A program made the position numbers and the translations under genes. A stretch of 64,000 bases of DNA from Amphiscolops sp. MND2022 (taxonomy: Eukaryota): assembly GCA_964187785.1 (NCBI GenBank), contig OZ076409.1, forward strand, positions 56,980,001 through 57,044,000. Direction: 5' to 3'. Below the pieces are notes generated by a model. That model saw only the letters and a list, made by a program, of their open reading frames with translations, did no database searches and was not told the origin of the DNA. Shown here piece by piece: positions 1-64,000 of the stretch. Each line of letters begins with the position of its first letter. Position 1 is the stretch's first letter.

Positions 1-9
1 AGCGACCAA

Positions 10-5880: not shown

Positions 5881-7076
5881 GCGCCGTGGGATTGGGCGGC
5901 ACATCAACCCTTTGGGTTAGACCAGAATGTTGCCATCATCGCAGACCCATACGTGGAGGAAAGTAATGAGGAAATAACGTCAGACATATCACGTGACTCA
6001 TTTCTTCCAGAACAACTGCCACAGGCATCATTCGAGATGGAACCGACCGCGCCCGTTGCCCCGAGCACGATTCAAACGCGTACTCAGTCTGCTTTGGAAC
6101 GGGGAATCCCTCGAAGACGATTCAGCCATTTTGGATACCCTTCTGAGTCGGAATCCGACCAAGAACAAATGGGTCAACCCATCGAAGAGCCACAACAACC
6201 AATGATTCACCCTGATATCGATGATTTGGAACCACTGTATTCAGATCAAGAGGAAGTCAGGCCAGAACCTACACCAAGTCTGATACCCTCGCCATCAGGA
6301 ACATCAGCACCATTGTTCTCGAACCCAGCTTTAACCGACACATTGAGCAATTTTCCACTTATCAGTTCTCGAGCTGGTAGCTCGGCAGGACTACAAACTA
6401 TCGAGGAACCCGAACCCCAAGAAAGAACTGACAAAGAAATTCCAGAACCCGGACACAGCATGGAAACATCGCCATCATCGGGGAGAACCGCGAGTAGAAG
6501 AGGCATGCCAAGAGGCAGACCTCCAGATCGTAGAAGAGGAAGTGCCAACTCATCAAGCAGAGCACTTGCAAACACGCACCGACCGTACACCAGATCGGGA
6601 GGCAGATTGCGAACCAGAGCACAATCTCAAACCTTGGAACGTGCAATGACACTACCCAACATTGCAGAAAAATTATCATCAGAACAACCAGAAGCGGAAC
6701 AAACAACAACCTCACGAGCACCACCCTATTTGCTGCGACGCAATAGAACTCCTAGATATCGCTGCGGAACATGTGGTTCCCGTAACTTTAGTTGCGTCAA
6801 CCTAATTAATGGAAAACCACCGGACAAGCGATTGGCCCGGGGAGTAGACGCTCCTGCCCCAGACACAGCTGTTACTGAAACAACGGAAGACCACATACAA
6901 CATATCCGAAACATACAAGCAAAGGACCAAGAGGTTCCACAAGTACATCATGTTGTGATTACCGTGGAAAAGACCTATTCGAGCATTGGACCAGCCGTGG
7001 TCCCGCCCCTGGAAACCACACTAAAAGCCATGCAAGAAACATCTCGATCAGACTGCCCCAGCTACCGATTTAAGGA

Positions 7077-8198
7077 ATGGACATGCACAAAAAGAATGGA
7101 TTAGAATTCACGTTGACCGCAATCATACTCCCACTCCCACTATCGATGATGTTTGGAAGAATAGAACCAAGTGACACACGAATAGCAATGGTCCGCTGTA
7201 TCACCGCGCGAAGACTATGGCAGCAATATGGTGTAACCTCCCCTCCTGGAGATGTGTATCACCCAACGGCTGGTTGGTGGCTATTGGTCACCTCTTTGGA
7301 CGAAACATCACTAGTGACTCCAGGAACTTTACTGATTTGCTTGGAAAATTTGCGTACGCTTGTAGAGTTCGAGGATACCTTATGCTTCCATCTAGCAGAT
7401 ATTTATCGTGGGAAATTCCTCAGTCAACATTGGTTACAGCTACTAGCTATCACCTTTTGTCGCCAAGCCAAAATACGCCTGTTAGACAAACACACGTATA
7501 CATTCGAGAACCCAGTGACCGTGCTGGAAGCACTCTCCGTAGTTCACGATTGGTCTTGCACGAACTTGGGAGACAGACCTTTACGCAGAACAGTGTGGCA
7601 AGACCGTAAGGCCATTCTGGATCATTTCACACCAAGTCAAGACAATCAAAGCACAGTCACAGGAAAACTATTGACAACGCATCCGAAGATCAAACCGAAC
7701 TATCTATCATGGATTTATTACGAAGAAACTGACATTTTGCAAGCCAGAGGTACCGTAGTAATATGCTGTCCGGCAGATCTTCTGTCATATTCAGCAATGG
7801 CGCGCTACGTCATCAGGGAATATGGCCAGGAAGAAATTTTCCGACTACGCCCAGCCGTAGGAAAGGCTATTCACCTCACCAGATCACCCGCAACGCCGTG
7901 GAATAACGAAATGTTCCTGCTAATCACTAGAGCCTCTAGTAAACACCCCATTTTACATGATGTGCTACATCTGTGCCTGATAGATCTGGTGCAGAAGCTC
8001 ACACGAACATAAATCACCCGTATCCATCTTCCCATCTATGACCCTGAAAGATCAATCAACATGCTACCAGCTTGGTACTCAATGTTGAAAGATCATTTCA
8101 TTGATTCCAATACCGACATAGTCCTCCATGATAGGGTGTATGTATCAATTGCGTTAGTGAGGACACACCACAACCATGTAAAATCCAAATTTGATTGA
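7077..8198 (+). pseudogene. Tandem TARG1/OARD1(Poa1p)-like macrodomains, probably the original Pol C-terminus
   Basis: ORF 7077-8012 continues past one TAA (8010-8012) in frame to TGA 8196-8198; IYYEETDIL..VVICCPAD..GKAIHL..MFLLITR..ITRIHLP..FIDSNTDIVLH follows the TARG1 motif order; a more diverged repeat lies at ~7180-7490. Confidence 0.65.
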
Positions 8199-8389
8199 AT
8201 CACTGTGGCACAAAAAAAAACAAAAAAAATGGCAATAAGGGAGGCCACTCGTCCTATTCTTAGCATATGTGTTGTTTGAGTCAATCCCTGAACTAGGTTT
8301 TAACGTGAATTGTCGAATCTGTTTTATCTTTTTGTCTTTTAATGTTTATTATATCAATTGCATTCATCAGCAATAATATTTTAGCTCAA

Positions 8390-8418
8390 ATTGACGTCTG
8401 TTGTTTTCTTTTTTCTAG
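8390..8418 (+). promoter_or_regulatory. Candidate splice acceptor for a subgenomic ORF3 mRNA
   Basis: TTGAC branch-like motif, pyrimidine tract TTGTTTTCTTTTTTCT, then AG at 8417-8418, ~105 nt upstream of ATG 8524. Confidence 0.4.
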
Positions 8419-8523
8419 TTCAGTCCTGTCAATTCCCATGCACTTGACGCAGCCAGTCGTATATCATCATATTTGCAGTATATCCACCATAGTCATTTAT
8501 CAAAGGTGCTACCCATCTCTTTA

Positions 8524-11500
8524 ATGAATCAATCGGCTAGAACCCGCATGCCAGCTCCATCAACAACAAGCTCGCAACCGAGCACCAGCAGAATGGACCA
8601 ATCACAACCGCCGACGATTGCCACGCAAGAAACTCCCGTGTCCTCGCTGCCTGTCGAAGCATCTCAAACCAGAATTGACCAGCTTGGTCTGGTTCAATCG
8701 ACCCTACAAGAGGCCCCTTCTTCATCACTGGTGACCGGGATAGCCATACTAATCGCTCAAATGCAATCTCTCGAAATACATCCGGACCTTACCCTCTCCA
8801 TATCAATTGGAATTGGATCTTACCGCAGAACTGCGGAATTCCACAATGGCGAGTGGCAAGGTCACGATCTCACCCACCATTTTGATGACCACAGATCGCA
8901 CCTCAGATATGGCGAGCCTAATAGGCCTCCCATGGAGCAGCAACGACGTCTTCAAACGAACCTGACGCAAGCACCTGCAATATCGTCGATAACTGCCCCC
9001 GAGAGCGCCCGCGACTGTCAATCAACGCAACCACCGCCTACACAGCAATTCACATGCCTTTTGCCAACAATGCTTCCGCAGATATTGACGCTCCCACCAT
9101 CATCCGCCCCAATTAGTGTCAGGCGCCTGGAAGAGAACAACAAACTCATGCTCCCTTCTTCTTTCAGGGGGGAAGAGGTAGAAGGAGCGCACACGAGCGC
9201 GCAGAACGCTGAAGATGCCACCCAAAATACAAGCCAAAGACCGAGAACCATAATGATGCGGAACCCGCCCGACGTGCCCATCATGACAGATATGATCGAA
9301 TTTCAAGACTCTTACGATGCCTTGCTACCTTCAACGTCGCAGGACCCACATAACCTAATAGGTTTTCAGGCCGACCCAGAACGCCAAGAACAACAAAAAA
9401 AGCAAGAACTAGCAGAAAGGCAAGCAGCCAAGGCCCCTATCGATCTCCGCGACGTATTGAATCGAAAGGAACAAAGCAAGATCGAACAGCTAGTCCAAAA
9501 GAAAAGGGCCAGAGACTTAGCCAATTCGGATGCAACGAACTCCAGCCCGAATCCTTCCCCAGTGCAACAGCCGGAGCCTAGGCGAGTGCGATTCTCTAAT
9601 GAGCTCCTATCGCAGACAGAGGCACGACAGCTTGACATTGCTGCCAGAGACGCGGTGCGTCTGCAGCGAGAAGCGAAATCAGAGAATCCAGACTCAGAAT
9701 TGGATGTGCAGAAATTCGAAACAGCTACCAGTAAAGGAAACCCAGAGGATGTGGAGTACCTCGAAAAAGCAACGATCGGAATGCATTACTTGAGGCCCGT
9801 AAAGAAGCCAACACTCCTTCTGGACCGCATTCCTCCCTGGTTCGAGAGAGTAAGGGAGAATCTTCATAAAGACAAGTCATCATTGGTGAGACCACTCCCC
9901 TCCAAAGTAAAATTGGCCGTACAACGACCGGCAAGATACGATGACCAACTGATGAGAAGCCGTGATTTCATGAAGGACGTAACAACCTTGCTCCCCATGG
10001 GCAAAGAGATGTTGCAAAAGACAAGGATTGCCTTGTTCATGGACTCAACGATGAAAGCAACGGCGAACATGAACAACACCCTGATGGATGTTCGCGTGAT
10101 GAACTTGCCCTGCACATCGCTAGAGGAAATGGCCGAGGTGACCTGCAAGGTCTTCGGTCCCACCATCAACCACCAATCCCACCAACAATTCCATTCCCTC
10201 CGATCCTGATATATAGCAATATGATTGACCACTTGGCTCTTCGAGGAACGCTGAAGTACTTTGAAGGAGGCAACCGTAGACTGACGGAAGAATTGATGAC
10301 AGGAGAGGTAGTTGCGTACGTCGAAGCAATGAGGAATGTGATCAGGCGGGTGCAGCGAAAGAAGCCCGTCGTAGGGGTAGTCTTTGTGTCGCCCCCGGGA
10401 TACGTATACTTGCCTAAACCACTCCAGCAATTGTTGTGTCTAGTATCAGAAGCATCCTACTCACAGAATTTGTCATTCTACATAATAGCACCGAACCTGA
10501 GAGTGAGTGCCACAACCTGGCGTCCGGGTGAGAACTCTTATTCTGCATTTTTGGCGGAAATCTCGAAAGCCTTGCAGGCTTGTACCGGATACGAGGGCAA
10601 TTCTAAGTTGTTGGCCGATGATGCTACTGCCTTTGACTTTGGCATGCAAATGGCGCACCGCTCCTTTGATGAGAATGGGGTACGCCGAGTCAAGGAGCCT
10701 AATGAAAAGGAACGGGCAAACATGATTGACAACGGATGGTTTGAAAAGAGAGATGAGTCAACGCTAGATGAGAGGACGCACAACGCTAAATTCCACAAAG
10801 AACTGCTAGCTCTCTTCAAGAAGACAGAAGGAATAAAACAAACTCGGACCGACGCGACCGTTTTTCCAGTGGCGATACAAGCGATCGACGCAAAGTCCAA
10901 CATGGTTTCCCCCACCCTGGTATTGTTAACAGTTTTAGCTCAGAAGACACCGCAAGAAAACCGAATGAACCCAGAGCATTCTTACCAATCTTGGTATGAG
11001 ACGCTGCAGGTGACCTTGAATGAAACAGCAGAAAGCCATGGAGTTCCCTTCCCCATATTCTTGTATAATATCTCGCTATTTTGGGTACCAACGATGGTGC
11101 AGCGTGAAAGCAGCTTAGATGAGCAGCAAGTTAGACTGTATGTTGAAGCAATGCAGAGGGCCACAATTGCTGAGATCCTGGCCTACCTGATGGCCGTTGG
11201 TCTAGGCGCCGTCTACAAGGGCCCAGTACACCTGGTGCAGAGGTTGGTCCTAGCTAAAGCCAACTCCTGTCTACTCAGTTTTCTCATATTCACCAAGAAC
11301 CAGCGGAATTGGATTAACGCCTTTCTAAACACTTTGGACCCTGCAGGCGCTTTGAAATTGCGCGCCCAGCTCGCCGAGAATATCCAAACACTATTGGCTT
11401 GGGTTTACTCAGCCTGGGTCAATGTCTCTGGTGTGATGAGCACTTTAGACGACGCGCTGAGTCAAAAACCCAATAGCAATAACCTGCCAGGTTTCCTATT

Positions 11501-12677
11501 CCCGTCGCAGATAGCCAGCCTCATGTTGGTAGAAACTGAAGACCTAGTCCCCATGATCGCACCCATAGTCTGGCCTATATTCGGTTCAATGATGGCCCTG
11601 AGATACCCTACACAGTCGCTTAGAGTTGCCGCAAAAGCACCTACATTATCTATTCTGCATTTCGTGGACCCTGAAGACGACGCCAGACAACCGAATTTTC
11701 AAATGCTAGTGGGCAACTTTGCCAACTTCCGACCACCAATGGCATAAACGATTATTAAAGACGAGAAACAGGTCGAGTACAATTTCAGTGCCCTGATCCG
11801 AGCCAGAGCGCGGTGCGCTGTTCCTATGTCGCTAGAACTTCATCCAGTAGAATGGTTGCACGCTCCTATAGAACCCAGCACTGGAGCATTGCAAGGCTTT
11901 GCCAGCTGGGATGAGCCAGGTATTCTCCAAGTACTAACCAATGCGGAACGACGTCTGGGTGGACGAAGAAAAGGCTCCACACCAGAAAGACTCCAGCATC
12001 GAATAATACAAGATATATCCCGAATGTACAACCCTCGAGTGACACCGCAAGCCGATACAGCCAAAATCCTGTCTGACACTACGCATTGGGCAGACCCGAC
12101 GATAGTGGACAGAATGATCTACCAAGGATTTCAAATTCTGAAGGCGACAATTCCGAAGATCGCAAGAGAACCCCATAGAAAGACCTTGCCCCTGAATGAA
12201 GAGAAGCCGAACAATCCAAAAATGGCCATGGAAATCTTCATGAGTCTGATAACCAAGCAGAGGGACGTAAGAAATACCGTATTTGACAGTTATTCAAATG
12301 CAATAGGGACTTTCAAGGAAATATTTTTCCGATATGGACGCCAAGACCTCGCAGACCAGCTGCCAGAACTAAGCCCAGCTGGCTCGACCTCAATGAGACA
12401 AGCAGCAGGGCACGAGGAGGTTTCTACTGCTGAAAATACATCAACTTCCGTGGTGTCAACCTCAAGTCGAATCAGCATTGCAATAGCTGCAGCACCAACC
12501 AACACCGATGTATCCATCCATGACCCTGAAACAGCTAACCCAACCACAGTCAACACCACCAATGTTACTTCCAATGATCAGACAGTGCCGCTAGAAGCTT
12601 TGGAAGTTACGCCCACGTCGTTGACGAGAACACTAGCAGCCGATATCGAATTAGAATTGAACGAACTACCTAGTTGA
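8524..12677 (+). pseudogene. ORF3 of element 1: ~1400-codon protein of unknown function with an SGNH-hydrolase-like segment
   Basis: ORFs 8473-10209, 10221-11747 and 11826-12677 join via one frameshift (~10170) and one in-frame TAA (11745-11747); may have extended to TGA 12773-12775 via another frameshift. Confidence 0.75.
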
Positions 12678-13244
12678 GGCAGCAAGACCTGCCGTCATCG
12701 GAAGTATTGGCCGTATCATTAAATGAAGTGCTGCAAGATGACGATACTACTATGGATGACACTGGCCATGAATGAAACAAGTACTGAACTTGGCTAATCA
12801 TACCAAACTAACCAAAAACGTATTACGCCTCAGCAGTTATCAAAACAATAAGTGCTATTTTAGTTAACAAAGTATTAACATGATTTTGCTAGTGTAACTA
12901 CCCGGTGGGTAGGTCCCAGCTTGGTGCCTGCCTAACTGCCAAAACAAGTGCAATTAAAGTCTTAGTAAAAACTTCTCCGCTCCTCTGGCTAAGTGTCGCA
13001 AAAGTGCAACCACCCTTAAAAGAACTTTTAAACTAGCTTGGAACGAATGGTAAGAGTTTTTAAAGAAACTGATTTTTATTGTCCCAGAATGATCAAAAAG
13101 TGCTAAAATGAAAAGTGCTAAGTCGAAATTTTGAAGTAGTAAGATCTAAGAGAAAAACTGAAAATCACGTTGCTAAAACCATTTGTAAGTAGTGATGCAT
13201 CCTTCTCCGTTTGCCGAGGACGACAAACAGTGGCCCGGGGAGGA

Positions 13245-38965: not shown

Positions 38966-39507
38966 ATAGAAATCTTTATTCCATGTATTTTCTTATACAC
39001 AAATCACTTTTCTTTCCAGTAGTTAAATTAAACTAGAAGAATCTGCAAAACATTGCGCATAAAAATATATAATTTAAAACTTAAAAGTTTTCTATCAGAC
39101 GAGATCATGAAAGATGTTGCATGCATTCAGCATCAGGTGAAAATTATACTTTCCAGGGTGTAACCGTCGTGATGCAAAATGCATTAAAGGCAGCGGTTAT
39201 CACCAGGCTCTTAAAGTGGTAATTTAGAGCCATAAATAGTCTGGCATTCTGTTGCAAGGGGTCACAGACTTCAACGGATGACTTCTTTCAAGCTCGCTAT
39301 TTTTACAGTTAGATTAATTTGAAACCAAACGGAAAATGATTGATCATATCCAGGGTTAGTATTTCCTGTTTGATCTATTATGCGCAATCATGTACATAAA
39401 TCACATATGCATGAAAGTTACACTTTAAGATGAATTCAATAATCGGTCGAACCCAATTCGATGAAAAATTGTGACCAAAATGGTAACATATAAAAACTGA
39501 TTATTTC

Positions 39508-40130
39508 CAAATCCGGATCCAAATTTATGATGCTTCCATGCGATTCCATGCATGGAACCATATGATAAGGGTGATTTAATGCGTGGAACTATAGCCCCAT
39601 GCTTTCCATGCAATTCCATGTATGGAACCATATATATGGATTGTATGGAACCACAGGATTCCATGAATGACGTTATTCACGCCCCTATTCTTGTTTGATA
39701 AATTGATAAACACGAGAGACTGAGAGAAAATGTTGACGAAAGGACATTTTGACTCCACAAAGTTTTCCATTTTGGGTTTTGGATCTTTTTCCGTACTCTT
39801 TTTAAATTAAATATTTGGTTTTCTGACATCTGTGAACTTTGTTATCGACTTCATACAGCTTCGTGGATAGAACGTGAATGATTTTAGTTATGAAGCGATA
39901 TAATTTCGAGCTATTCCATATATGGAATCATACGGTTCCATACAATTCCATGTATGGAACCATATGGTTCCATGGGATTCCACATATGGAACCATATGGT
40001 TCCATACGAATATCATCATATGGTTTCATACGATTCCATGCATGGAAGCGACATGAAACTATTGTATTGAACCATATGGTTCCATGCATGGAATTGCATG
40101 GAATCCTTATAGATTAGGATCCGAGTTAGG
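39508..40130. mobile_element. MITE-like element with palindromic TTCCATATGGAA-type internal repeats
   Basis: Inverted ends GGATCC.AAT.TAT..ATTCCATGCATGGAACCATATG vs CATATGGTTCCATGCATGGAAT..ATAGATTAGGATCC; unrelated sequence at ~39670-39900. Confidence 0.55.
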
Positions 40131-40820: not shown

Positions 40821-40831
40821 CTGATTATGAA

Positions 40832-41074
40832 CAGGGATGTCAATTTGATTTTGATTTAAAATATTACCCACAAAATCTTCTTAAAAAGGAATACATTCTA
40901 ATTATGATTTCAACTTTTTGAGAAAAAAAAAGATCTCAAGTCACTACAGATTGAATTCAAAAAGTTTCTTATGTACGTGCCCCCAATAGCCCCCCCTCCA
41001 AAAAAAATGATAGGGCGGTCTATCAAAATATACAATTGTAAGCAATTAGGTGAAAAAAAACATCAACATCCCTG
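40832..41074. mobile_element. 243-bp hAT-like MITE occupying intron 1 of the putative channel gene
   Basis: Perfect 9-bp TIR CAGGGATGT/ACATCCCTG; degenerate 8-bp TSD ATTATGAA vs ATGATGGC (5/8). Confidence 0.6.
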
Positions 41075-41241
41075 ATGATGGCATTTATGCAGGTGGAGTT
41101 CTCGTTGTACTGAACACTCGAGTTCACATTGGACAGGTCGTTGGGGGATACATTAGTGTCCAACCCGGGGCTACTCATCATATCTTCGTGGGTGCCTACC
41201 ACACTGCTCGTTTCTTCTTCCTCTACCTCACGACGTCTCAT
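41072..41241 (-). CDS. Exon 1 of putative PAC/TMEM206-like gene
   Basis: ATG 41241 with an upstream in-frame stop; MRRREVEEEE...SPGLDTN...SSVQYNENSTCINAII resembles the PAC N-terminus (PGLDSE..SSIRFSKACLKNVF). Confidence 0.45.
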
Positions 41242-41633
41242 GTCTGTCCACGCCTCTTATTCTGGCGAGTACCAAGTCACTTAGAAACAGATCAGATGTC
41301 TCATGTTTCAAAACATCTCGTGAATGAAAATGACATGACTTCGAAGTAACTCAAGATTTTTAAAAAAATGTTTACATTTCTAGTGGATCCACTGGAAATG
41401 TAAATATTTTTCAAAAATCTTGAGCTGCTTCGATCAACACATTTCCATGCAGAAATTGATGGTTTTCGGGACTCTAAATCCAATTTATTGGTCCAAACGT
41501 AAATACAACTTGAATTTCGTGGTGAGCATTTTTTTCATCTGATTTGCAGACTTCAAAAATGGTATGTATGTCTGAAAGCACGAAAATGCACTTTTTAAAG
41601 CTCAGTAGTTGGTGCCTATTGAGATTCTGCCTT

Positions 41634-41743
41634 TCCTGGTTGAGAAAAATGCAATTCTTGCGAGAACTCCTTGCAAGTAAATGTAACAGAAATGCATTGC
41701 TAGCAAGGATCTAGCAAGGAACGCATTTTTTTCTGAACCAGGG
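41634..41743. mobile_element. Small MITE (CCTGGTT/AACCAGG termini)
   Basis: Inverted termini and CTTGCAAG-like internal repeats. Confidence 0.55.
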
Positions 41744-44121: not shown

Positions 44122-44513
44122 TAGAAGATCTCGGCGGAAAAGTTGAACAAACGAACAAAAAAGTGGATCATTCAGAGTGAACTGAAAACTACCCATTGTA
44201 ATTGTTGTAGCTAACGGCTTTGATAAAATAGCGTGAGAATAAACAACTGTATTTCAACTTTCTCAGACCACACTGGTAGTCTATCGTGTTTTGTCTGAAC
44301 ACTGTGTTCAGCTTAGGCAGGTTCTTAGTCAACTGTGACTAACTGCTCTTTTTCAATCGCGGTTACTACCACATTCCCCCGACAGCAATTGACGGTTGGG
44401 AATGGAAATTAATCATAACATCGAAACACAGAATGTACAGGTTAGGTATGGATAAGTAATAATTATGGAAAACACTACAACAGTTAAAAGTTTCAAAAGA
44501 GTTTGTGACGGTT

Positions 44514-45403
44514 TCACTTTTGGGTAGTTTTCTTTTCATCTCCACATATGTAAACCGGTATGCCGTAACGGTCTGGGGCTCGTCTATTTCTACTATTTCT
44601 AGCGGGTGACGATTTCGGTGCTTGGTCTGTTTCGGCGCTATTTTCTTCTTGTTCCAGGTCTGCAAATACCTGTGGCATTTCTTCGTCTTTTCTTGTCTCT
44701 ATGGCTCTCATTGTGTATTGCTTTGTTTTCTTTAGGCGTTTTTGCTTTCCCTCTGCTTTTGGTGCTCGCGCGTTTTCTCTCTTGGATAGGATCACTTCTG
44801 CTTTTCCTGCTGGTGCAAATTGTACTGTGTGATCAGTCTCTTTAGTCACTCTTCCCATCCTTTTCTTGAAAAGTCCAGCCAATTTTCGCTTTCTTTGGCG
44901 CTCTCTGCCGAAGATCATGCTGTCATCGTCACGGGGAAAATCTTTCAATCGCTCCAGTTCCACTGATTTGTCGTAGTCTAATTCATTCAATTCTTTATAC
45001 AGTTTAACTATTATTGACGTTACTGTATTCAGTTTTCGACCAATATGCCTCTCGAACGGCGACTTCCCATCTTTCCCTTTACTTGTCCTAGCGCTCTTAC
45101 TAATTGGTAGAACAATTTGTTCTGTTTTTCGGCTTATATTTAGGGACTTGTTCTTAGTCTTTCGTTCACCGTTCTTATAAGTCTCTCGACTTTACCATTT
45201 CCTCTACGGTCATGGACCGGGCATACTATGTGACGAATTCCAAATTCTTCTCTAAGGTTTTTAAGTTCATTCCCCATAAAGACGGTTGCTTGATCAGTTC
45301 TTACTATTTGTGGAACCCCGTTGTTGCTTATGTATTTTCGCAAAAACTTTTCGACCCCTTTTATGTCAGAACTTTTTACAAATTGTAAAGTAGGGTATGT
45401 CAA
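44514..45403 (-). pseudogene. pol: Integrase core (N-terminal part deleted) and C-terminal tail of element 2
   Basis: IVRTDQATVF...GNGKVERLIRTV; HHCC domain and first catalytic Asp not found. Confidence 0.85.
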
Positions 45404-45463
45404 TTAGGATGATTAGACGATTTTCGTAGTAAACAAGCTCTCTGTCTACTCTCAGGTCTTTAA

Positions 45464-47285
45464 TTACATGTCCAAATAATTTATTTTCTTTACGAAGTAT
45501 ATTGATATCGCGCCGTAAAACATCTTCCCGGACATTTTTAACCCTCGACCCGCTTGATAATTTGCCATAAGTAGTCCGTCAGTAATTTCTTCGAATGTTT
45601 TAACTTTTACAAATGTAATTTTGGGGTTTATTTGGGCTGATGTAGATGCCTCTTCGACTGATGTCACAATAGACTGAAGTGGTGAAGTTTTTAATTCTGA
45701 AGGCTTTTCGGTTTTCCTTGATTGAACAATTTCTTTGGGTCTTTGAGATTTTGATGAACGAATTAAATTACGTGTAGCGTTTCTTTCGCGACTAATTTGT
45801 AGGCGACTCATTTTGATTTGTTTGCTTTCACACTTAAGACGGTCAGTTGTTTCGCTCATCTCTTTCTCGCTTTCTGCGTCCTGCGCTCTCATTGGCTGCT
45901 TGAACAATTTGTTCGATCTCTGATTAGCGCGTTGCTGCCTTTTATAATTCTTGTTAACATTTTCTACTGAATTGACTACGAACCAACTTTCCCAAAGTTT
46001 TTTTGAACTTTTCGACCACTCATTTTCATTATAATCACTCGGGTGTCTAGATAAATAGTCGGCTAATCCCATTGTTCGTCCGGGTTGATGAATTACTTCC
46101 ATATCAAAGGGTGAAAGTCTGTCTATCCATCTAGTAAGACTACTCGAATAGGTTTGGTTTCCGTGATTACTTTTCAGTGCTGTTTCGAGCGCTTTATGGT
46201 CGGAAATAACTTCGAATTTTACTCCTAATACGTAATCACGAAAATGCTCTACCGCCCAAACTATGGCGAGTAATTCTAGTTCATTCGTGGAGTATCTGGG
46301 TTCGTAATCTGACAAATATCTTGATGTGCATGATAGTAACTCCCATTCATTTTTCTCATTTTTCTGCATGAAAAATGATCCTAGGCCGTCGTGACTAGCG
46401 TCACATATTATGCGCCAATTTGTTCAGTCTGTTGAAATGTGATAATTGGATAATTTCTTGTACGCTTTTTTGTACTTGGTTAAACGCTTGGGTATGTTTT
46501 TCCTTCCAATCCCAGTTTCCTTCTTTTTGAAGTAGGTCTCTAAATGGTTCGGTGATTTTGGCTAATCCGGGTAAAATGTTAGTTAGCTGATTCACTGCCC
46601 CCAAGTATGATCTTAGTTCTTTCAAAATTTTGGGTTTCATTTTCTCTGGAATTCCTTGTACTTTTTCATTGAGTGGTTTTATCCCCTTTTCTGAAACTCT
46701 AAATCCGAGCCAGTCTTTTTCATTCTTTGCTATGTTACATTTTTCTTCTTTAAGTTGTAGCATTCTACTATCTAACTTTCTAATAACCTCCCTAACCTTT
46801 TCTTCGTGTTCTTCCTTGGTTCCCTTTGTTACTATTAAAATGTCATCTATAAAAATGAAAACATTCGGAATATTAATTAAAATATCTTCCATTATTCGTT
46901 GGAATTCTGTGGGTATTACTGTTAGTCCATAGAATCCCGTTTTAAAACGATATATGCCGCTAGCTTTTACCCCGATTATCGCAAAATTACAGTGTTTGGT
47001 TAATTCTGGGTTTAGGAAGACCTGTCCAAACGCGTATTTGAGGTCTACTGAAGTGAACCATACTTTTTCTCCCTTTTGCGTTGTGATTGTTTCTGCCAGG
47101 GTATTTAACAAATCATCTAAATTCGGCATTTGGTAATTATCCTTCTTTATGTTTTCATTCATTTCTCTGGCATCTAGCGCTATTTTTACCGTTTTATCTC
47201 GCTTTACTCTGATAACAGTGGGCTGTATAAAAACATCGTCTTTCATTTCGTTTATTCTTTCAATATGTCTCAATTTTATTTTCAA
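45464..47285 (-). pseudogene. pol: RT and RNase H of element 2 (frameshifted)
   Basis: KIALDAR, MPNLD, VDLKYAFGQ, FIDD; CDAS region, ELELLAIVWAVEHF, SDHKAL, LADYLSR. Confidence 0.92.
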
Positions 47286-48774
47286 TATGTCCCATTTTTA
47301 TTAACTTTTCTAGTTCTTTTTCGACGGAATTTTGGACTTTGAATATTCGACGTCCCTTTTGTTGTTTTGGCACACAATTTTCTTTAATTTGTGCGTTTAT
47401 TTCATGCCCTTCTATGCTGCCGTGTCTTGAAAACAATTCCTTAAACTCTATGAACAATTTGTTTGTCGACTTAGTTACGCAATTGAATTCACACTTACCA
47501 CCTTCCGTCTTTAGCTTCACTCCCAAGCCTCTCAGCCAGTCTTGGCCTATCACAGTGCGCGCTCCGTTTTCTGCTATCAAGGCCCCAACTTTATCCAGCT
47601 TTTTCCATCCTGCTTCGACCTGTCCGATGAACGCTCGAAGAAATTCAATTTTGTTACTACTGTAATCAATGTATTTCTCATTCTCGCCCAGTGGTTGCAA
47701 TTTATATTTCTTCACAAACATCTTTTCTACGTGAGCTTTGGTAAAGATGGTGATAGGCGATCCGGTGTCGATGAGTGCGTGGAAGGGTTTTTTGTTGACT
47801 CTTCCTTTTAGTACGAAGGGTTTGTTTGAGGAACTTTTTTCTTCGTCGATGTGGAGCACTTCCACTTCTTCTTCTCCTGATTCGTCTTCCGAACTACTCC
47901 ATTCGGTTTTTTGTTGGACGACATTAACTTTCTTTTGATACGGTGTCTTTTGTTTTGTTTCTGGTTGTTTTATGCGGCACATTCGTCCGTAGTGTCCCAT
48001 TTTTCCGCAAAGTCTACACTGGACGTTTTTCGCCCTGCAGATCTTTTGATGTCCAGCGACGAATGGCTTCTCTCCGCACTTGTAGCATTCGTTTGTTTTC
48101 TCCACTGCGAACACTGGTTCTTCTCTTATGGTTGTTGGCTTTATACAAATTGTTTTCTTCTGCTGTGCGCCTTGTTCGAAAGCTACTGCAGATTTTAGAG
48201 CTTCCTCCGGATTATCCATTGGCTCTGTGAAAAGCCTTTCCTGTACCACTGTGTTTTTCATGTTCGATACACAAATATCGTACACTAACCCGGTGGTTTG
48301 CGTTCCAAAGTCGCAATTTGCAGCTAATCCGTTCAAGGCGTGCCAAAAATGCTCCAAGTTTTCGTCTTCTTTTTGTTTTCTGTTAAGAAATTTGTGTCTG
48401 TCCATCAGCCTGTTTCTCTTTTTCTGGAATGCGTCATGGCATTCTTTCAACAGATCTTCTAGCTTTGTTGCTTTTATATCCATGTTTGGTTTTCGGTCTA
48501 ATAGCGTTTTTCTGGCAGCCTCCCCAAGTGCGATATATAAGAAACTTACTGCTTTTTTCTCGGCAATTGATTCTTCAACTCCTCCCATCAGTTCCTTTTT
48601 TCTTGGGTTCGTTGTCGTATCTCTTGTTAGTTCTTCTAGCGATATGGAGGATTTTGCCATGAATGTCGCCTCAAACAGCTCTATCCATCGACTCCATTCG
48701 TATTGTTTTTCTGTGGCTGCATCTTGCCAGAATACGGGTATGCCCGATGTCGGTTGGTTATCTCGCAGCGCCAT
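47260..48774 (-). pseudogene. gag: Gag-protease of element 2
   Basis: ATG 48774 (MALRDNQ...); knuckles CYKCG..H..C and CRLCGKMGHYGRMC; protease LIDTGS...IGQDWL. Confidence 0.92.
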
Positions 48775-51619
48775 GTTAAAGCTAACGGCTTTGATAAAAT
48801 AGCGTGAGAATAAACAACTGTAATTCAACTTTCTCAGACCACAATGGTAGTCTATCTTGTTTTGTCTGAACACTATGTTCAGCTTAGGCAGGTACTTAGT
48901 CAACTGTGACTAACTGCTCTTTTTAAATCGCGGTTACTACCACAGTAATAGTCGGTTTTTTCCTTATGGGAAAAGGCGTTGACTATAGACACTTTAAAAA
49001 TGAGACAGTTCCAAAAAATCTCAAAGTGGAACTCTTTGCTATTGTCAAGCTTTCGAATATGGCCCTAAATAAAATTCACACTTGCGCCAAGCCGACATGA
49101 AAACATAACTTGTGAAGTTGGACGAAAAAAGAGTCACTGTAAAGGTATGTTCTTTTTCTCCAAACACTGCCGACTAAAAATAGTGCTTGACCAGGTTAGA
49201 ACACAAAACCTTCAGACGAAAAAAATTGTGTCTTACGAATTATCTCAACTGGTGTTGATTTCAAGTTATAGAAGATTTGAAAGAAATTTTTGGTGACTTC
49301 TAAACTTCATATAGCACTGACTGTTTATGAATCTTTTCATCAACGGTTTTTTTTATTGCCTGTGGAATTAACCATTGTAACGTTACTCTGGTTGAAACTA
49401 GGAATTTTAATTAGAAGCTGCGAGGAAGCATTGAAGCTAGTGTTTTAAACAACTTCAAATCAGGGCAGACTCCATATAAATAAATTTCTTGTATGTTTTC
49501 CCATCAGCTTAGATAATTACGGCAGCACTCAACTGCGCTTGAAAAAAAGTCGATGCAAAATTCTCGCACGACTTGATGGTTATTTTGAGCATCGAAAGCG
49601 CAATTTGAGATCTCTTCACTTTCGAGCTAATGTTGTCTCTTAAAATTCAAGCAATTGGCAATCCAGTGAGCTCGTTCAAAATAAAAACAAGCATCAAGTT
49701 TCATGCGATCTCCTGAAACTATTTGGATGCAAAAACATATAAACAGCACAATAGTCCAGTCCAAAATGTTACAACAAAACCTGGAGAAAATTGATTTCGA
49801 AAGTTAACCTTTTTTTCAAACTTTCTTGGCGCCAGTGTTCAAGATAAGTTCTCAAACAGATTGGATTGCAGAAAACTCGAGTTCTACTTTGAGAAGCGCT
49901 TTGCAATCAACAACAAAAGTCACGAACTTGTGCTGTTCGGAGTAAAATGGTAGAATAATCGAATTCGTGATGTCTTTGAACTGATGCCAGTGATGGTCTG
50001 TTTGAACGTTCAATGCAATCGGTTACGGATTTCTTTGGAACACTTGGTCACCTTGCCATTTTGTAGTGTGGAACTTCTTCCCTTCACCGATTTAAAAAGC
50101 CTACTAGATTCCAGATTTGGAAGTGAGAAAGTAACAATTCTGATAAAACATCCGACATAATGCAACGTTCATGTTAATATATCATGTATTTGTGAGAGTT
50201 GTATTTTCTATCACAATCTTTTTGATGAAAGTCACATGGAAAAACAGCAAAAAAACTTGCTTTCAAAAGAATAAGTCACCTGTGTTGTCGTTGTAACCCC
50301 AGCGTTATGAAACGCAGACGTATCCTGGAGATTTCGTGATGGGAAAGAAAACAGTGGAAAAGATTGTTATCACTTCAAAGTTTTTGGCAATTGGGCTGCA
50401 CTTAGGCAGCCATGGCAAGATCTTAGAATTTCTTATTGCATCTTGCCGGTCATGAAACCCATGGCAAGATTCTTATTATTATCTTACTAAGATGTAGAAT
50501 TGAAAAAATTCAAAGATTTCAAAATTTTGATTAGGAGCTCGAAAAACAATTCCGATTCTAGTATTTTTCTATTGGTGGTGGGTATTTACGCGCTTTTTCA
50601 TAGATTTAATTTTCTTTGAAAATTCAAAAACTCTGGAAAAAGATCTGACAAAGCATCATGGTTCTGGGGACTTTCAGATCTAACATAGCCATGGAGGGTC
50701 AGTCTGGATATGTAACGAGAAGCTATCGCGTTTGTCCAGTTTTCGTAACTTTTGGAACATTGGTGAAACTTTCAATTGAATGTTGCGTGGTGGCGCCAGT
50801 GTACCGTGATTACATGACACGGTACTAAAGTTCGCAAAAAAACTAAGTGCGCTTGATAAAGAATGTCAAGATGTCTAAGAGGTCAAGACCCTGGAATGAG
50901 CTTTTTCGCACGTCCAAATGACATTTCCCGAAGTATCACAGTTCCTAGAGGATCATTTGTGACTTGTACCTCCTTTGAAGAACAGGATCCCCATGTTTTT
51001 AGAAGGCCCTATTCTCAAAAATCTTGCGTTCAGGAAAGCTGTTTCTCGTGAAAAAAACTGTTTTTAGATTTTATATCTTAATTAAGCTTGAATTTGTTAG
51101 TTTTTTGTTCGGTCAAAATAACAAGTTTAGCCAAGGTCCCCTTTTGCATATTTTTGAAGGCTTCTTGATTGTTGGTTTTCTGCGTTGAACCCACGGCACT
51201 TATAGCGTTTACAAATAAGAAAATATGATGGAGAACTTTTTCTAAAATTTCCGAAATTGATATTTTTTGCGAAATTGACGTGTTCAGGTTCCCGGGCCTT
51301 TCACTATGTTAGCGCCATAAGTTTTCACGGTCGTGATTAGGTGAACGTTACAGAAGGTAGAAACAGTTTCTTGATTGGGATACCCGTAGATGGTTAAAAG
51401 TCACAGTATCTATCTTCTGACGAGCGGAGATCTCAATAAATTCTATTTCGAAGCCTCATACTTTTCGCGAGATAGAGAAAAATTTATAGTACCGAAGTTT
51501 TTTTCTCTCGACTGGCCCCGATGGGCCTATTAGTCATCGGGTGAAAAATTATTACTTGTTATTATAATATGTATATTATTATAGTTTTCCCTATATCATA
51601 GAAAAAATCGAAAAAGCCC

Positions 51620-56074: not shown

Positions 56075-57214
56075 CCTCTTTGTTAACAAAGACACATCAT
56101 CATAAACAGAAAAGCGTTAATTTTCGCTGTTTCGTTACTTTTTGGTGAAAACAGCGGAATGTTAAAAATTAGATGGAGCCAAAAACAGATAGAAGTTGTC
56201 TCTAAAATCGACAAGCGTTGAAATCAAAACCATTCAATGAAAGTGCAGAATATCTTGGTGCAGAATGATACCAAGGGCTAAATACCGTGAATTTCATCTT
56301 TGTGAAATTCCACCATGGGATCATTTATCACAAATCAGCGACCGATTGATGTAATTCTTATCTTGGGAAAGCAGATTAATGAGCCAGCTATGAGTCATCG
56401 ATTCAAAACATTGCCAATGAAGCAATGCAAGGGGCGCAGTGATACTGCAAAATTTTTTACGTACTGTTTGAGGGGGGCTATGGAAAAAATACGACACTTT
56501 CTAAACTCAACTACTTTAAAACGAAAAAAAGCACTAAAAGGAATAGTCTGAACTGAAATGCTTCTAATAATCTCAAAACCAGGTCACACATTTTTGTATA
56601 TAGGGTCCTAAATGGCAATTCGAAAATCAGTATTTTCCATTCATCGTTTCATCTCCATTCAGCTTCACATGACCTACTTCGAAAAAATTAATAATTTGAA
56701 TGAACCATACTTTGTCGTTTATAAGGTTCTGTCACAACAAAAAACATTTTGATATAGTTAAGTTTGAAAGTTTAAAAAAAGTAAGTTTGTCCCCTGATTT
56801 AATTCTGTGAAGACAAAAGAAATCAGAAATAACCATTCAGATAGAGCGTTTCCTTCCTCGAAGAAGTTATTATCCAAACTATCTTTTATCATAGTTATAT
56901 TTCAAAAATGGCAGAAGCTCGTTACGTGTTTATTGTGAATTCCCACGCTGCGGGAAAAACATGGTGAAAACAGTTTCAAACAAATCGTAGGACAAAATAT
57001 TTTCATAGGGGACATTTCATAGTGAATAAGGACTATTATTGACTAAGAAGATAAAAATGCCCGAAGTTGTGACTGTTTCTGAGAATTTTTCATTCCAAAC
57101 AGCGTTGCACACTGTCCAAAAATACCAATTGTCAAAATGTGCGGCACAATGGGCTCGAAAAACGCGATATTCAAACTGAAAACATCAAAACCGAAGCAGA
57201 GAATTTCTAGTGGA

Positions 57215-57580
57215 AACAAGCCGGGACTGGCCCAAGTTGGCGCCATAGCCAAAAGGCTATAGTCAAAAATAGCAAAAGGACTTCAAAGTGTCAAAGTATT
57301 GGTGACTTGGGGGCCCTTTACTGAAGAAAGTTTTTTGAACAAAGTCTCACAATTCCGAAAAAACTAAAAGAAGGGACCCTTTAGTCTCACCCGGTATTGT
57401 ATGTTACGCAGAAAAACGAAAAAACTTTTTTGGTTCAGTAGCGTGGGCCAACAGGTACAATTTAAGTACTTTTAGAACTTTTGGTAGAACTATTTTGGTC
57501 AACTCAGGTGTATTGAAAAAAAACACTGACTAAAAGCCCTGACCATGGTCAATTTTTTTAGGAAAGTCACCGACTAAAAA
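57215..57580 (-). mobile_element. HINE/DINE-1-like Helentron copy
   Basis: AACAAGCCGGG..AAGTTGGCGCCATA start, CCGACTAAAAA end; internally similar to 21426-21893 and 18741-18940. Confidence 0.8.
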
Positions 57581-57705
57581 TTAAAAGTCGCACAGAGCAA
57601 GCCGGAAAGAGCCATGAGTTTTTTCCGTAAAATCAAGTACAAAACTCCCATGAGTTGTACATTACCAAAAACAAAAAATACCCGAAGTGGCCAAACTTCA
57701 AGGTC

Positions 57706-60700
57706 AGTTGTATCTCAAATAGACGTATAAGAAAAAGAAATCGATGTTAAAATTCAACTGTTCTGTTACTATCCTTTTTCTATCTGTTCGTACAAAGTTC
57801 CATCTGCACGTATGTGGCAGGGCAGGTAATTAATCTTTAAATAACATTAGTATAAATGAACACAGAAAAGAAACCAGTCTAATTAGTTTCTAGAGTCTAA
57901 ATGAGTTCGTCTGTCCTCTACATTCCCCCCTCCACAATTGGCTGATGATCGGCCAATAGGGGGCATTCTGCTTTCTGTTGTGGCCGTCAGTTCTTCACTG
58001 GTCCAGTGTTTGGTGGATGGTTAACCGTTCCTGGCAGATTGATCTGTTCTGGTTTGCAATTAGCCGTAACGTCTGAATTTGGTTCTTTGACCGGTCTAAA
58101 GGTTGTCGTCTTTTCTCTCCGGTTGAGATTCTGGTTGACTCTGTGTGGCCCCCGAGTTCAGTTGTTCTTTGGTGTTTCCTGTAATCATGACAAACCGGGT
58201 TATTATATCTAATGATTGGATCAGTTTTTGTCAATCTCTTTGACTTGCGTATAGGTTCCTTTTTTTCAGTGTCCAATTCAGTACTTGAGCACAGGTTACT
58301 TGCTAAGTCTAGATCAGAATTTTCTAGGTTATCTTCTAGTGTGTTCGAATTTGTGTTATTATCAGAAAATACCTTACCGTTTTCGTCTCTGATAAAAAGT
58401 CCTTGTCTGCGCGTTTAGCGTCTTCTATGGCACGGTCTACATTACAGTGCATAGCCAAGCTAAATTTCTACAAACACAATGCTGTGCGTGTAACCCCTTA
58501 GATTCCACAGACATGTCTTTAAACGTGCAAAATTGATTAGTTTCCACTAGTTTCGTGGAAACCGAGACACCGTCAACGAAATTCTGTGGATTCCAATAAC
58601 AAATATTTAAAACATTAGCGGTGCTGCAGAGCTGTCAGGAACTTTTTGTCTTAGTTTCCGCATAGTACTTCCGTGTCCGCCAAATTTGCTGTTTTAAATG
58701 TTAGTAGGCCCGTGCTGCTTCCCGGCATAGTTGTGTTGGTTGGGCTCGTTTGTGGCGTTTAGACGGGGGCAATCTTTGGTTAGCCTCGGTCTGCCTCGAC
58801 CGAATGTGCTCTTTGTGAGGGCTGTATTGTCTAGGGACACTGGCGTCTTAGGCTCTCAACATCCAATAATGGCGTCTCTGATCCGCTGTCCGATTTTATC
58901 ACCAATGCCCGTTTTTGTTTGGATAGTGATCTGATAAATTGGCCGTCCGAACCCTCTGTTGCTTTGTTCCTTGTTAAAATCAGTGATAGGTTTAATAATC
59001 ATTTTCTCATGTAGTACTCCTCCGTTTGGAGTCGTTACAGTATAGTTTGTACCCGAAATAGCTGATTGTGGTTTATCGGAATCTGCACTTTCAATGTTTT
59101 TTCGTTGGCGTTTTTTATCTAAGAACAAAAAGGGATAATTACTATCACCTTTTGTGTTTTTCTTCGGCTTCATTGGCAACTGGTCAGACACACCGCCAGC
59201 TCCACTAAACGAATATGCCTGTAAGGTCACTGAAACGGAACATTTTGTGAACTTTTCTTTTTTATCAAGGTTTAGTAAATTGCTTATCTCCGGATTTGGT
59301 TTTCTGCCTATGCGGAGTTGAAAAGAGGATTTTTTAAGTTGTGTGTGCAGTGTTTTTCTCATCATGTCCAGTGACTTTCCAGGGCCCTACCGAAACGTTC
59401 TCCGGCTTTAATGTTTGTTAAAAGGTTTTCTTTCAGAGTTCTGATCCCCAGTTCTACCAAATTTGGTGGGTGTATGGATATACAGTGTCCCGTATATTAA
59501 TTCGATGCAGTGTTTTTTGCAGAAGTCTCTGAACAGGCGTCCCGTGAAAGCGGTACTTTTATCCGTTCTAATCGTTTTTGATATACCGTTTAGCTGGATG
59601 TATTTTTCAGGAAGTTTTACCGCCGTTCGCCGTCCGTAGATGTACACAAACTTGCTGCCGGCCTTTAACTAAACCTGTCCATGGCCAATAAAATGTAAAG
59701 TCGACGTTGTTTTCCGTGATTGGTTTAATGAAATCCAATTGAATTTCTTCTTTGGGTTATCTAACCGAGGGAGGGTATTCGTTTCCGTGTTCGGTATGTT
59801 ACGCTTAATGTTCTTACCGGATATGAATCGCACTTCTTTTGGATTGCCGTCGTCATTTACGACCATCAGAAGTGTCGTGCTGCGATTGTCATCTTGTTGA
59901 TGGCAGTATGGCTCTTGTGTAACAGGCTGATGATTTTGTCCTCGAAAAAGACCAGACCAAACAGGCTTGACAACTTCTTCTTGTGGGGCTGATAACTGTC
60001 TGGTGTTAAATCGTGTTGTTGACGTTCCAGACAAACCAAGGTTTTTAACAGAGTCTGGTCATTGATAGTCTCGGTCATCAATAATTGCAGGTCTGTTGAA
60101 AAGTTCTTCTCAGTTTCTCTAACAGCTTGTCCTAGGTCCCAGTTGTTGTCTTTTTGAGCTACGATTTTTGAGGCATGTCCCAGCTTGACATATTGGACGC
60201 TAATTACCCTGACATAGCGTTCCCAATTTATTGCGGGGACTTCCAGGATGGACGGGTCTTAGTCCGTCTCGGAGTCGTTCTCGCCATTTTCCTTCGGCAT
60301 TGGAACGTATTGGTCGAGGTCCGTTAAGGCTGACGATGGTCCGGGCAAGTTTTGTTGTTGGGCCGGTGTTGGTCGATCCGTTTTCCAAAATGGATCTACG
60401 GTCCATTGTTCCGACCGTCTCGTTTGGGGTTGGAAGCCTCCGCTGATTTGGGGACCGACATTTTTTCGTAGGTCACCTTGTTCCCGGCCTCGAATAATTT
60501 GTTGTATTCTTCCCTCGATCACTCTTCTGTCGTTTCTCAGGAATTTCGGTTCGTGGTTTTTTTCCACTTTCCTCCGGTCATGCGATAAATACCGGGCTTC
60601 ACAATTTCCTTCCATCTTTGGATCAATGTTGTAGTTTCGACTTCGATGAACCTACTGCTGCGAGATTATCAATTGTTTTAGTATCCGTTGTAAGTTTGGT

Positions 60701-63700
60701 GCTTTTTGTTATTTGCGATTTTGATGAGTTGCGTGTTAATGTTGTGTTGTTCAGGTAATCAATGGCGGTTTGTTTGCGTGCGTCTTGTGACCGTGATTGG
60801 TATTTGCTGTGCGTTCGTTTTTGTCCGTTTCGGTTTCTGATTGCTTGACGTGATTGTCCAGGCAACCCTGTTTGGAAACGAACTTAAAATGCAGTGAAAT
60901 GTTGTTGATGACGTATTCATCGTCGTACGCATAGTCCGTTTGCGGCCGCGCTGACGGATTTCTGCTCAACTAAACAGTGAGCGCTAAATGCTTCGCTACG
61001 ATATGGTTTACATTAATTGTGAAATGTGCTAACCAGTTGTGTTGTTAGCCATCTTGTTAGCTGTGCGCTATATGTTTTACTGGATTGGTTTCGTTTAATT
61101 AATGGTTCTAAAGCCTGATGGTCCGTAAGTAGGTCAATCGGCTTACCGTAGATATACAATCCGAATTTTTCTAATCCCCAAACTACGGCCAATAGTTCGA
61201 GTTCTTTTATTGCGTAATTTTTTCGGTATCTGCTAAAAATCGGCTCGCGAAACCGATTGGTTTTAGGTTTCTGTCTAGCTGTTCTTGCCAACATGTTGCA
61301 CCGAGGCTGTTCGTTCTGGCGTCGGTTGTTATCACGTTCGGATAATTTGAATTGTAGGGAACAGGACACGAAATCTCCGTGATCGTTTGTTTGAGATTTT
61401 CCAATGATTGTGTGTGTTCTTCCGTCCATAACCTTTCATCGTCCTCCTTTAGGAGCTGTCTTTGGCTATCCGTTTGTGCGAACAGGTTGTCTATGTATTT
61501 GAACAAGTATTGGATGGCCGCCAGAAATGATTCGGGTTCTTTCTCATTATCAGTTCGTTTCAAAACTTTCATTGCCGTCAGTTTGTCCTGCAGTGGCCTG
61601 ATTCCGTTTTGGTTTAGTTTATGACCAATCCATTCATTCTCCGTTTTAAAAAATGCGGATTTAGTTTTGCTGAGTCTGTATCCGGAATTTTTCAGTCGGG
61701 TTAAAACGTTTATTAGCTCTTTTTGTGTTGTTCTTTTGAGCATTTGGTTACGACGATAAAGTCATCTAACCATGCCGGGTGTTTGTTGTCAATTTTTTGT
61801 CAATTGTTTTTCCTGAAAAGTGGTCGGTATGTCCGCTAACCCGTAAAATCCCTCTTTCGAAACGGTAGTAACCGGTAAAATGTCCACTGCTTACGGCGAA
61901 TATGCACAGGCTTCGGGCGTCTCTGGACAATTGTTGCTGACCAATATGCGTCGTCGAGGTCGAACTTCGAAATTCAAATCTCGTCTGCCGGTCCATCCGC
62001 AATCTTTCTGGAAATCCTGGAAAATAATTCCTCCATGTTAGGAATCTGTACCCTTTTTGTGGTGATTTCATTTACCTTCCATGAATCCATGGCAATTTTT
62101 ACCGACTGGTCCTTCTTCACCGTGATCACAGCCGGACTGACGAATTAATTTTCGTCAATGTTTTTTGCTTTTTTCAATATGACCTTGTTTCATGAGTTTA
62201 TGGATTTTTTTTCCGGCTGATTGTTGTAAGTGGATCGGTATTTATCTTCCTTTTTGCAGTATCAATTTTGCGTCTTCCGTTTGCGGTATTTTCACTTCGA
62301 GTCCGTTCGCGGTATGATTTTTGTTGAAAGTGTTTTTGAACTTCCTTTTTAGAATAGTTATGTCCGGATTTTCCTTTATGTGATTTTTCTGTTGATCGGC
62401 CTTACCGGTATCCAGCGTTATTCCCAAATTCTCTATCCAGTCCAAACCTAATAAAGGATTGGTTTTCTTTGTTGTTACCACCAAGACTTCGAGGTTGTTT
62501 CGCTTCACGTTTATTTCTACTGTTGCGATTGTCTTTCCTTCAAATCAAATCCGATTGTCACTTAGATCTCTATATTCAGTTTCAATTGGCTTCAGTGGCG
62601 TTATTCTGTTGAATTGTGCTTTCGGTTATAGGTTACCGGTGAGCCGCTATCTGTTATAAATTTGATTGACCGATTATTGACCAATGCGGTAAGTGTGAAG
62701 AATTCCGTACCATTCTTTTTCATTTGGCGTATTGAATGCATCTTTTTATTTACTGAATGCCATTCAGTAAATAAAAAAATCCATTCAATATGCCAAACTT
62801 ATAACAGATGGCGGCTCACCAGTGGATTGTCTTCGGTGACCAATTGTCCTCTTCCGCACTGCTTGCCTCATTTTCTTGTATGCGGTTTACTTTTTTGTTT
62901 AATCTACAGCATTTCGCGTAGAGGCCGATCTTTTTGCATTTCGCACATTTCTTTCCCCTGGCCGGGCATTCGTGCTGATTAGACCAATTAGTTGCTCCGC
63001 ATTTATTGCAGTCTAGTTTTTGGAATTTACCCGGTTTATCCAATGGTTCTTTCGTACTCCTTGTCTTTCTTTTATTGAAACATCGAATTTTCTTCTCGAC
63101 TTCTGTTTCTGGTGAGTCGTTCAATTTCTCATACATGTACTCGTGTAGTGCTTCGGTAATTGGCTCCACTGACATGTCGCTTTTTCTGATTTTTTTCTTG
63201 AGGTCATAATCGCATGTCTCGTTTCCAATTACAGATAAAAATTTTGCCGCCAAGAGTTCCGCTGCCGTTATCGTTTCGAACTCGTAGTTTCTGTCGAGTT
63301 CAAATATCCCTTTCCACACGTCTGCCGCGGACTCTCCATCTTCTCGTTTCAGGTTGAAAAAATCGGCTCTTTTATGTTAGACATTTCTCTCCGGTGTAAA
63401 ATGTAGTCGGAATAATGTGTATAATTTGTATACCAGTAATGTGCTTTTGCTCTCTTTCTCTCTAACCGCTTTGGTCATTTCCGTGATAGCACTATGTACA
63501 ATTGCCCACAAAAATATGTCTTTTATCTCTGTTTTTATTTAATCACGGTAGAGTGGCAGTTATCACGGTGTTTTTTTGCTGTTTGTCATTGTCGATAAGT
63601 CTAGATTCTTTGTCAATTTTATGTACTGTACAAACTTCCGCCACCGCATGTTTGCGTTGGAATAGTCTTGCTTTTCCAATGTTGGAATGGTGAGCTTCTG

Positions 63701-64000
63701 AGGTACAAGTTCGTTCATTGGTTCTGTTGAGCGTATCGTTCGCTAGCGGCTGTTCACCTGAGTGTGTTCCCGCCGACGTCCTGTTTGTGGCTCCGTTCCT
63801 TGGAAGGGTGTTTGTGCTGTCAACCATTACATTTTTTTTCGTATTGGTCCTTTGTAAGTCTTATAGTTACTCTGACTGCGCAATGTTGTATCTCGAATAG
63901 ACGTATAAGAAAAAGAATTCAATGAAAAATGCAATTTCTGTTACTATCCTTTTTTATCTGTTCGTACGAAGTTTCATCTGCACATATGTGGCAGGGCAGG
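57706..64000 (-). mobile_element. Heavily decayed Ty3/Gypsy (Mag-like) LTR retrotransposon; 5' LTR runs off the window
   Basis: LTR 57706-57922 matches 63884-64000; PPT GGAGGGGGGAA; degenerate PBS TTGCGCAGTC; fragments of gag knuckles (~62880-63010), protease LLGLDW, RT WLDD (61761-61772), RH ELELLAVVWGLEKF, integrase IRTDKSTAF. Confidence 0.93.

Follow-up and report, generated by a model that had tools for sequence, protein, structure and literature searches.

Introners are non-autonomous transposons, with terminal inverted repeats (TIRs) and target site duplications (TSDs), that have turned into introns. One splice site is their own, the other is recruited from the neighbouring exon or the TSD, and codons are sometimes added or dropped, according to the available portions of two accounts (PMC9860276, PMC12130899); the element described here appears to be of the same kind. 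In the part of Gozashti et al. 2022 at hand (PMC9860276), introners occur in two animal groups only. The 5' splice sites given in the corresponding part of the 2025 paper (PMC12130899) are GT, GC, GA and AT, with no GG; the supplementary datasets of the two papers may list hAT elements or GG sites.

Introns with GG donors were reported from Eurytemora affinis (Robertson 2017, PMC5714493), where, as in the introns predicted here, the exon always ends in AG and the intron has A at +3; they too are lineage-specific, and the 5' end of U1 is unchanged (PMC5714493). The initial annotation of our locus had named Oikopleura for both GA and GG donors. The GA donors are indeed reported there, in the part of the source available (PMC7072748), and GG donors are reported for Eurytemora (PMC5714493). 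In Fritillaria borealis, TIRs of non-autonomous DNA transposons supply the splice sites, as would be the case here, and the introns are removed by a U2 spliceosome whose U1 is conserved, in the sections seen of the two reports (PMC11282704, 10.1101/2025.08.15.670264). For hAT elements, a precedent of behaviour as an intron is Ds1, spliced from Adh1-Fm335 (cited in the accessible part of PMC3260210). The maize Ac/Ds TIR, C/TAGGGATGAAA, and 8-bp TSD given in the same part of that source agree with our element in the first eight TIR bases and in TSD length.

Here we describe a candidate intron of Amphiscolops sp. that consists largely of a probable hAT-type MITE and begins with GG. Judging from genomic sequence, it is very probable that hAT-MITE introners yield GG-AG introns in this animal, and that removal of the present element restores the ancestral protein exactly.

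The predicted intron and its host gene

The window, that is, the whole stretch of 64,000 nucleotides that was analysed, contains on its minus strand a MITE-like element between two coding exons (Table 1). The TIRs are identical at 9/9 positions, and identity drops off further inward. The initial annotation had given 41071-40821 (251 nt, a 243-bp element plus an 8-bp TSD) as the segment to be removed, and its coordinates and lengths were right; the element lies at 41074-40832 and the acceptor CAG at 40823-40821. Its claim that removal of 41071-40821 restores the reading frame also held: without these 251 nt there is an open frame of 106 codons, with the residues of an intron-less orthologue at the junction, and reading through the element leads to stops. 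The last three bases of the upstream exon (CAG, 41074-41072) come from the TIR of the element. We infer the start codon to be at 41241. Compared with the donor consensus, the predicted GG donor agrees at 7/9 positions and departs at +2 and +4 only.

Table 1. Features of the predicted intron and its surroundings (positions in the window)
Feature	Position	Strand	Remarks
MITE-like element	40832..41074	-	243 bp, non-coding, 9-bp TIRs, old, hAT-type ends
5' TIR, CAGGGATGT	41066..41074	-	holds predicted donor CAG/GGATGT; GG at 41071-41070
3' TIR, ACATCCCTG	40832..40840	-	
TSD, exonic copy, 8 bp	41075..41082	-	residues as in intron-less orthologue
TSD, intronic copy	40824..40831	-	5/8 identical to exonic copy
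Predicted acceptor CAG, once exonic	40821..40823	-	+9 to +11 past TIR
Predicted GG-AG intron, 251 nt	40821..41071	-	
TTGAC, possible branch point	40839..40843	-	A at -20, inner edge of 3' TIR
Upstream exon of probable TMEM206/PAC-like gene	41072..41241	-	coding; aligns to P0001
Downstream exon, first transmembrane segment	40675..40820	-	canonical GTAAGT donor at 40674

The flanking 8-mers that the initial annotation took for an 8-bp TSD match at 5/8 positions. Since the exonic copy keeps the residues of the orthologue, the intronic copy is the changed one. Its supposed drift toward pyrimidines is absent, with five pyrimidines in each copy; in 11 introns, mismatched TSD bases are pyrimidines at 23/38 exonic versus 24/38 intronic positions. 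No internal relative of the element was found, it is a singleton among the predicted introns, and with a TSD match of 5/8 its own MITE origin rests on its ends. Near the 5' end of the gene there are arrays of palindromic repeats, together with small elements that have inverted repeats (window 39500-40120, 41341-41433 and 41642-41733). Broken frames of Gypsy-like LTR retrotransposons occupy window 1-12700 (+), within the predicted second intron of the host gene, as well as 44500-48900 (-) and 57000-64000 (-).

A search of the downstream exon against 1.84 billion representatives returned five matches, of which four (P0001-P0004), all predicted from genomic contigs, have no intron at the junction and are continuous across it. 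Orthologues lacking the intron, which the initial annotation had proposed looking for, therefore exist, and they read as the predicted spliced product. When seven junction models were compared, the GG model gave the best alignment to all of P0001-P0004, and its product differs from P0001 in 2/66 codons around the junction. The best joint probability of two or three TSD changes beside 2/66 residue changes is 0.005 or 0.0002, a rough figure that uses one neutral rate and assumes P0001 to be the orthologue. A scan of JGI metagenomes for orthologous DNA confirmed none, and the empty site is known as protein only.

The presumed last exon of the host gene (L003) matches PF15122 (TMEM206) with 31.3 bits (cut-off 27); the window exons searched alone matched no Pfam family, and they are joined to this last exon because the order is collinear with that in a paralogue on C3. 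The host is likely an ion-channel gene of the TMEM206/PAC type. A weak lead to DEG/ENaC-type channels came from Atlas (0.86). The likely extent of the gene is about 190 kb. A middle exon, at C1:56.884 Mb, shares the strand of the window exons, and the last exons run the other way, in a 39-kb contig (C1:56,814,237-56,853,076) flanked by two 200-N gaps (C1:56,814,037 and 56,853,077). Because of these gaps and the collinear paralogue, the contig is likely a mis-oriented piece of the scaffold.

The paralogue (C3, 9.19 Mb) has its own CAGGGATGT element of 636 bp (L005:836-1471), which sits some four codons upstream of the site in the window and has TAG as its acceptor, at +14; it looks like an independent insertion. 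One apparent pair of window and paralogue exons turned out to be a DNA repeat, and a wider comparison recovered exon 3 onward. The last exon of the paralogue is present twice (C3:9,398,076 and 9,462,151). The TMEM206-like last exon has eight genome matches (L254-L261) at E ≤1, five of them at ≤0.001, which suggests an expansion of this family in the present invertebrate.

Sister elements across the genome

Exact TIR pairs with an inner length of 40-400 number 107 in the genome versus six in the control, and near the size of the window element there are eight versus none. We analysed 74 pairs: all 32 of ≤369 bp, all 19 of ≥379 bp, and 23 of the 56 in between. Many of the young copies are embedded in a larger repeat, and the pairs therefore reduce to 52 independent sites. 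Young 375-bp MITE copies (L027 and 15 others; L057 and three others) have common flanks, so they spread as part of a larger repeat and not by transposing themselves.

Flanks were called coding in a manner blind to the acceptor, with at least 35 open codons per side in the frame set by an 8-bp duplication and GC ≥0.40. These thresholds were our choice; L046, L050 and L052 fell narrowly below them, and L010, L012 and L013 (a three-copy gene with an acceptor at +13) went into the non-coding class. An in-frame AG for the GG donor is found at +5 to +14 in 17/20 coding-flank sites in the sense direction versus 7/20 antisense (P=0.003), and at 17/64 non-coding ends. The AG is exactly at +11 in 11/20 coding-flank sites versus 0/20 antisense (P=1.5e-4) and 2/84 of all others. 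The frame required by the internal GT of the TIR fits one of the 20. By +17, where two of the AGs lie, an in-frame AG is present at 19 of the 20 sites, and L048 has no AG nearby. The 19 acceptors comprise 14 CAG, 2 TAG and 3 AAG (YAG, 16/19), and every donor reads CAG/GGA, so that AG ends the exon and A stands at +3, as the TIR sequence itself dictates. The genome-wide search for TIR elements at exons that the initial annotation had suggested thus bore out the acceptor in the frame of the GG donor.

Further candidates came from searches biased to acceptors. These added 11 longer introns after 50 of 55 matches were examined, and six coding loci with a changed 3' TIR were noted among 13 new loci examined. 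Related TIRs gave several further loci; that pattern had 120 matches, whose first 24 new loci were examined, and is noisy (control, 91 matches). L303, L304, L305 and L322 have related TIRs (CAGGGATGA, CAGGGCTGT), YAG at +11 and long open frames, and the TSD of L304 matches at 8/8. The tally is at least about 40 candidate introns. Most of the other flanks matched no Pfam family, and they are taken as coding on the grounds of GC content and open frames. It is likely that dozens of sister elements in genes of this animal are spliced as GG-AG introns.

Some loci depart from the main pattern. The donor end of L125:959-1512 and of L119 reads CAG/GCATGT, a GC donor, with both flanks open. Predicted GG introns also occur in multi-copy genes (L192, L203; L010, L012, L013), of which one has a MULE transposase domain; such introns thus seem to be present in mobile or repeated genes as well.

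In the clathrin heavy chain (C8:23,664,273 onward), the pieces meet without a gap at 805/806 across the predicted GG junction; the clathrin piece is the one match in the genome among three candidates scored, and a search for full-length clathrin returned no match. The flanks on both sides of another element (C5:35,895,137) match the ryanodine receptor RyR2, at a site that is likewise a single genome match (two candidates scored). This junction is gap-free in four intron-less orthologues (P0010, P0011, P0013 and P0015), and two orthologous RyR proteins carry the element. In a kinase (C2:20,468,643), the Pkinase profile runs over 2-126 and then 128-198, the catalytic loop being split at one codon. 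An F-box-like match covers profile positions 2-23 and then 26-44, beginning at the second residue; the predicted GG junctions of the kinase and the F-box are gap-free too.

Thirteen of the 31 predicted introns belong to one MITE family and have 70-80% internal identity to one another and to non-genic MITEs, in both orientations equally. The mean TSD match is 6.3/8 in these 13 and 3.3/8 in the 18 singletons, which is an age gradient; over the 22 introns with acceptors at +11 it is 5.4/8, and the match is 8/8 in L106 and several non-genic copies. A PF05699 search of the genome gave 150 scored matches, of which 20 loci were examined. One, L234, is an intact hAT of 2241 bp with a 697-aa frame, the PF05699 domain and a perfect 8-bp TSD. 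Its ends, TAGGGATGT and ACATCTCTA, have one mismatch to the MITE TIR, and the same type of end asymmetry (ACATCTCTG) recurs in four predicted introns. A transposase copy with exact CAGGGATGT ends was not present among these 20 of the 150 loci.

Proposed mechanism and alternative readings

The process would begin with an insertion that makes an 8-bp duplication directly ahead of an exonic YAG. U1 and U6 would pair with CAG/GGATGT and the major spliceosome would remove the element, the YAG of the host serving as acceptor and the CAG of the TIR taking its place in the mRNA. Because both ends of the element read CAGGGATGT, it should work in either orientation. Insertions without an in-frame AG soon after the TSD would be purged, and the survivors would age until their ends alone are recognisable; the window element would be among the older, single-copy survivors. 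As regards the machinery, a U1 change that would pair with the G at +2 was seen in none of the 20 copies read out of 23 in a diverse U1 family, and the ACAGAGA box is normal in the three U6 copies read out of 19. Among the 23 U1 matches (L166-L185), several differ at the 5' end (ACTAACCTG and ACTTACCTT are examples), and many of the matches are clustered on C12. Conservation of the G at +2, or its conversion to GT, was also considered; five elements have another base there, none with coding flanks, which are too few.

A longer canonical intron could instead start from a weak upstream GT or GC, at a cost to the protein of 8-31 residues. GTs at 41110, 41134 and 41164 with the acceptor 40821, and the GC at 41090 with the AG at 40816, are in frame and stop-free; the earlier statement that nearby GTs give the wrong frame is accurate for the two just inside the element (+5 and +11 of the predicted intron) and wrong for these three GTs. 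However, the upstream donors match the consensus at 3-5/9 positions versus 7/9 for the GG donor, the stretch that would become intronic is conserved against P0001 as well as exon is, and every alternative junction aligns worse to P0001-P0004. Among the 31 introns, 25 have no GT-AG alternative within a total shift of 12 nt; the other six, clathrin and RyR included, do have such a pair, but its use would drop or change conserved residues. In the kinase, the nearest alternative would cost 14 codons, as far as the catalytic loop; at two sites there is no canonical pair within 45 nt. We regard such a longer intron as highly improbable. That the insertion simply killed the gene, leaving open flanks as a residue, is hardly credible. 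The assembly does place the last exons on the other strand, but the position of that piece between 200-N gaps and the collinear paralogue suggest mis-orientation. The host exons look conserved and not decayed, contrary to the pseudogene alternative of the initial annotation, as seen in the contrast of TSD and codon changes with the joint probability given above; dead genes would not select AG at +11, and the clathrin and RyR cases are sole matches in the genome.

The same mRNA would also result from a shifted register, or from excision guided by a stem of the TIRs as in euglenids or Fritillaria, with true ends other than GG and AG. With repeated ends, the junction can be slid by 1-5 nt to an identical mRNA; the TIRs pair in the predicted fold, and the absence of a GG-matched U1 from the copies read would agree with such a route. 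Excision of the element plus one TSD would not depend on an AG, but there is strong selection for AG at several offsets, mostly as YAG (16/19). The predicted fold does not stand out from those of shuffled sequences (z -0.86), and YTRAY at the TIR edge is found in 7/19 versus 10/58 non-coding ends (P=0.11). An obligation of the 3' TIR to pair with the donor was rejected, the 3' TIR being changed at six coding loci. With the branch motif not significantly enriched, an ordinary fold and a variable 3' TIR, stem-guided excision is unlikely, and we consider this class of explanations as a whole very unlikely.

A transposon-derived intron with a GG donor, as the initial annotation had suggested, is thus the predicted splice best supported by the orthologues, the sister elements and the conserved exons. 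We propose, more tentatively, that the spliceosome of this lineage has become relaxed at donor +2 without a matching U1. An Ac-like hAT terminus, (C/T)AGGG.TG, would then be a ready-made donor in either orientation, and several hAT MITE families might, over a long period, have turned exon insertions into exact GG-AG introns by the hundreds, also in essential genes. If that proposal is true, transposons have repeatedly opened a way to non-canonical donors in animals.

Comparison with known systems

Donors with GG are very rare in described genomes, and in Eurytemora, where they are common, their origin was left open. Here most of the chain is present in a single genome, from an intact hAT through a MITE family that shares its ends to exon insertions both young and old, with orthologues that lack the intron for comparison, and it offers testable substrates for a spliceosome that would accept G at +2. 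Gene predictors based on GT-AG would break clathrin, RyR and similar genes in this genome. A literature search, mainly of the texts of open-access papers, gave no paper that links hAT ends to GG-AG introns.

Like introners, the predicted introns are absent from orthologues (the window gene and RyR) and similar ones occur at unrelated loci; they would add an animal case of introner activity, and the element would act, by the splice predicted from its sequence, as an introner with its own 5' site and a co-opted 3' site. The copies here are 70-80% alike or single, and older than the targets of the introner screens, as far as the available parts of these describe them (PMC9860276, PMC12130899). 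In Eurytemora, 31 of 36 introns have GA donors and a transposon origin was not shown; none of the five GG donors in File S1 is GGATG, and the donors were confirmed by RNA-seq, whereas those here are predicted from genomic sequence (PMC5714493). The introns of Fritillaria are mostly non-canonical, with ends chiefly AG-AC or AG-AT, in the portions of the reports at hand (PMC11282704, 10.1101/2025.08.15.670264). In contrast, the introns predicted here have a normal YAG acceptor of the host, are odd at donor +2 alone and have GT-AG neighbours. Splicing of Ds is imprecise, uses GT donors near the end of the element and occurs in mutant alleles. Here, by comparison, removal is apparently exact, the GG of the TIR itself would be used, and the genes concerned are conserved and matched once in the genome.
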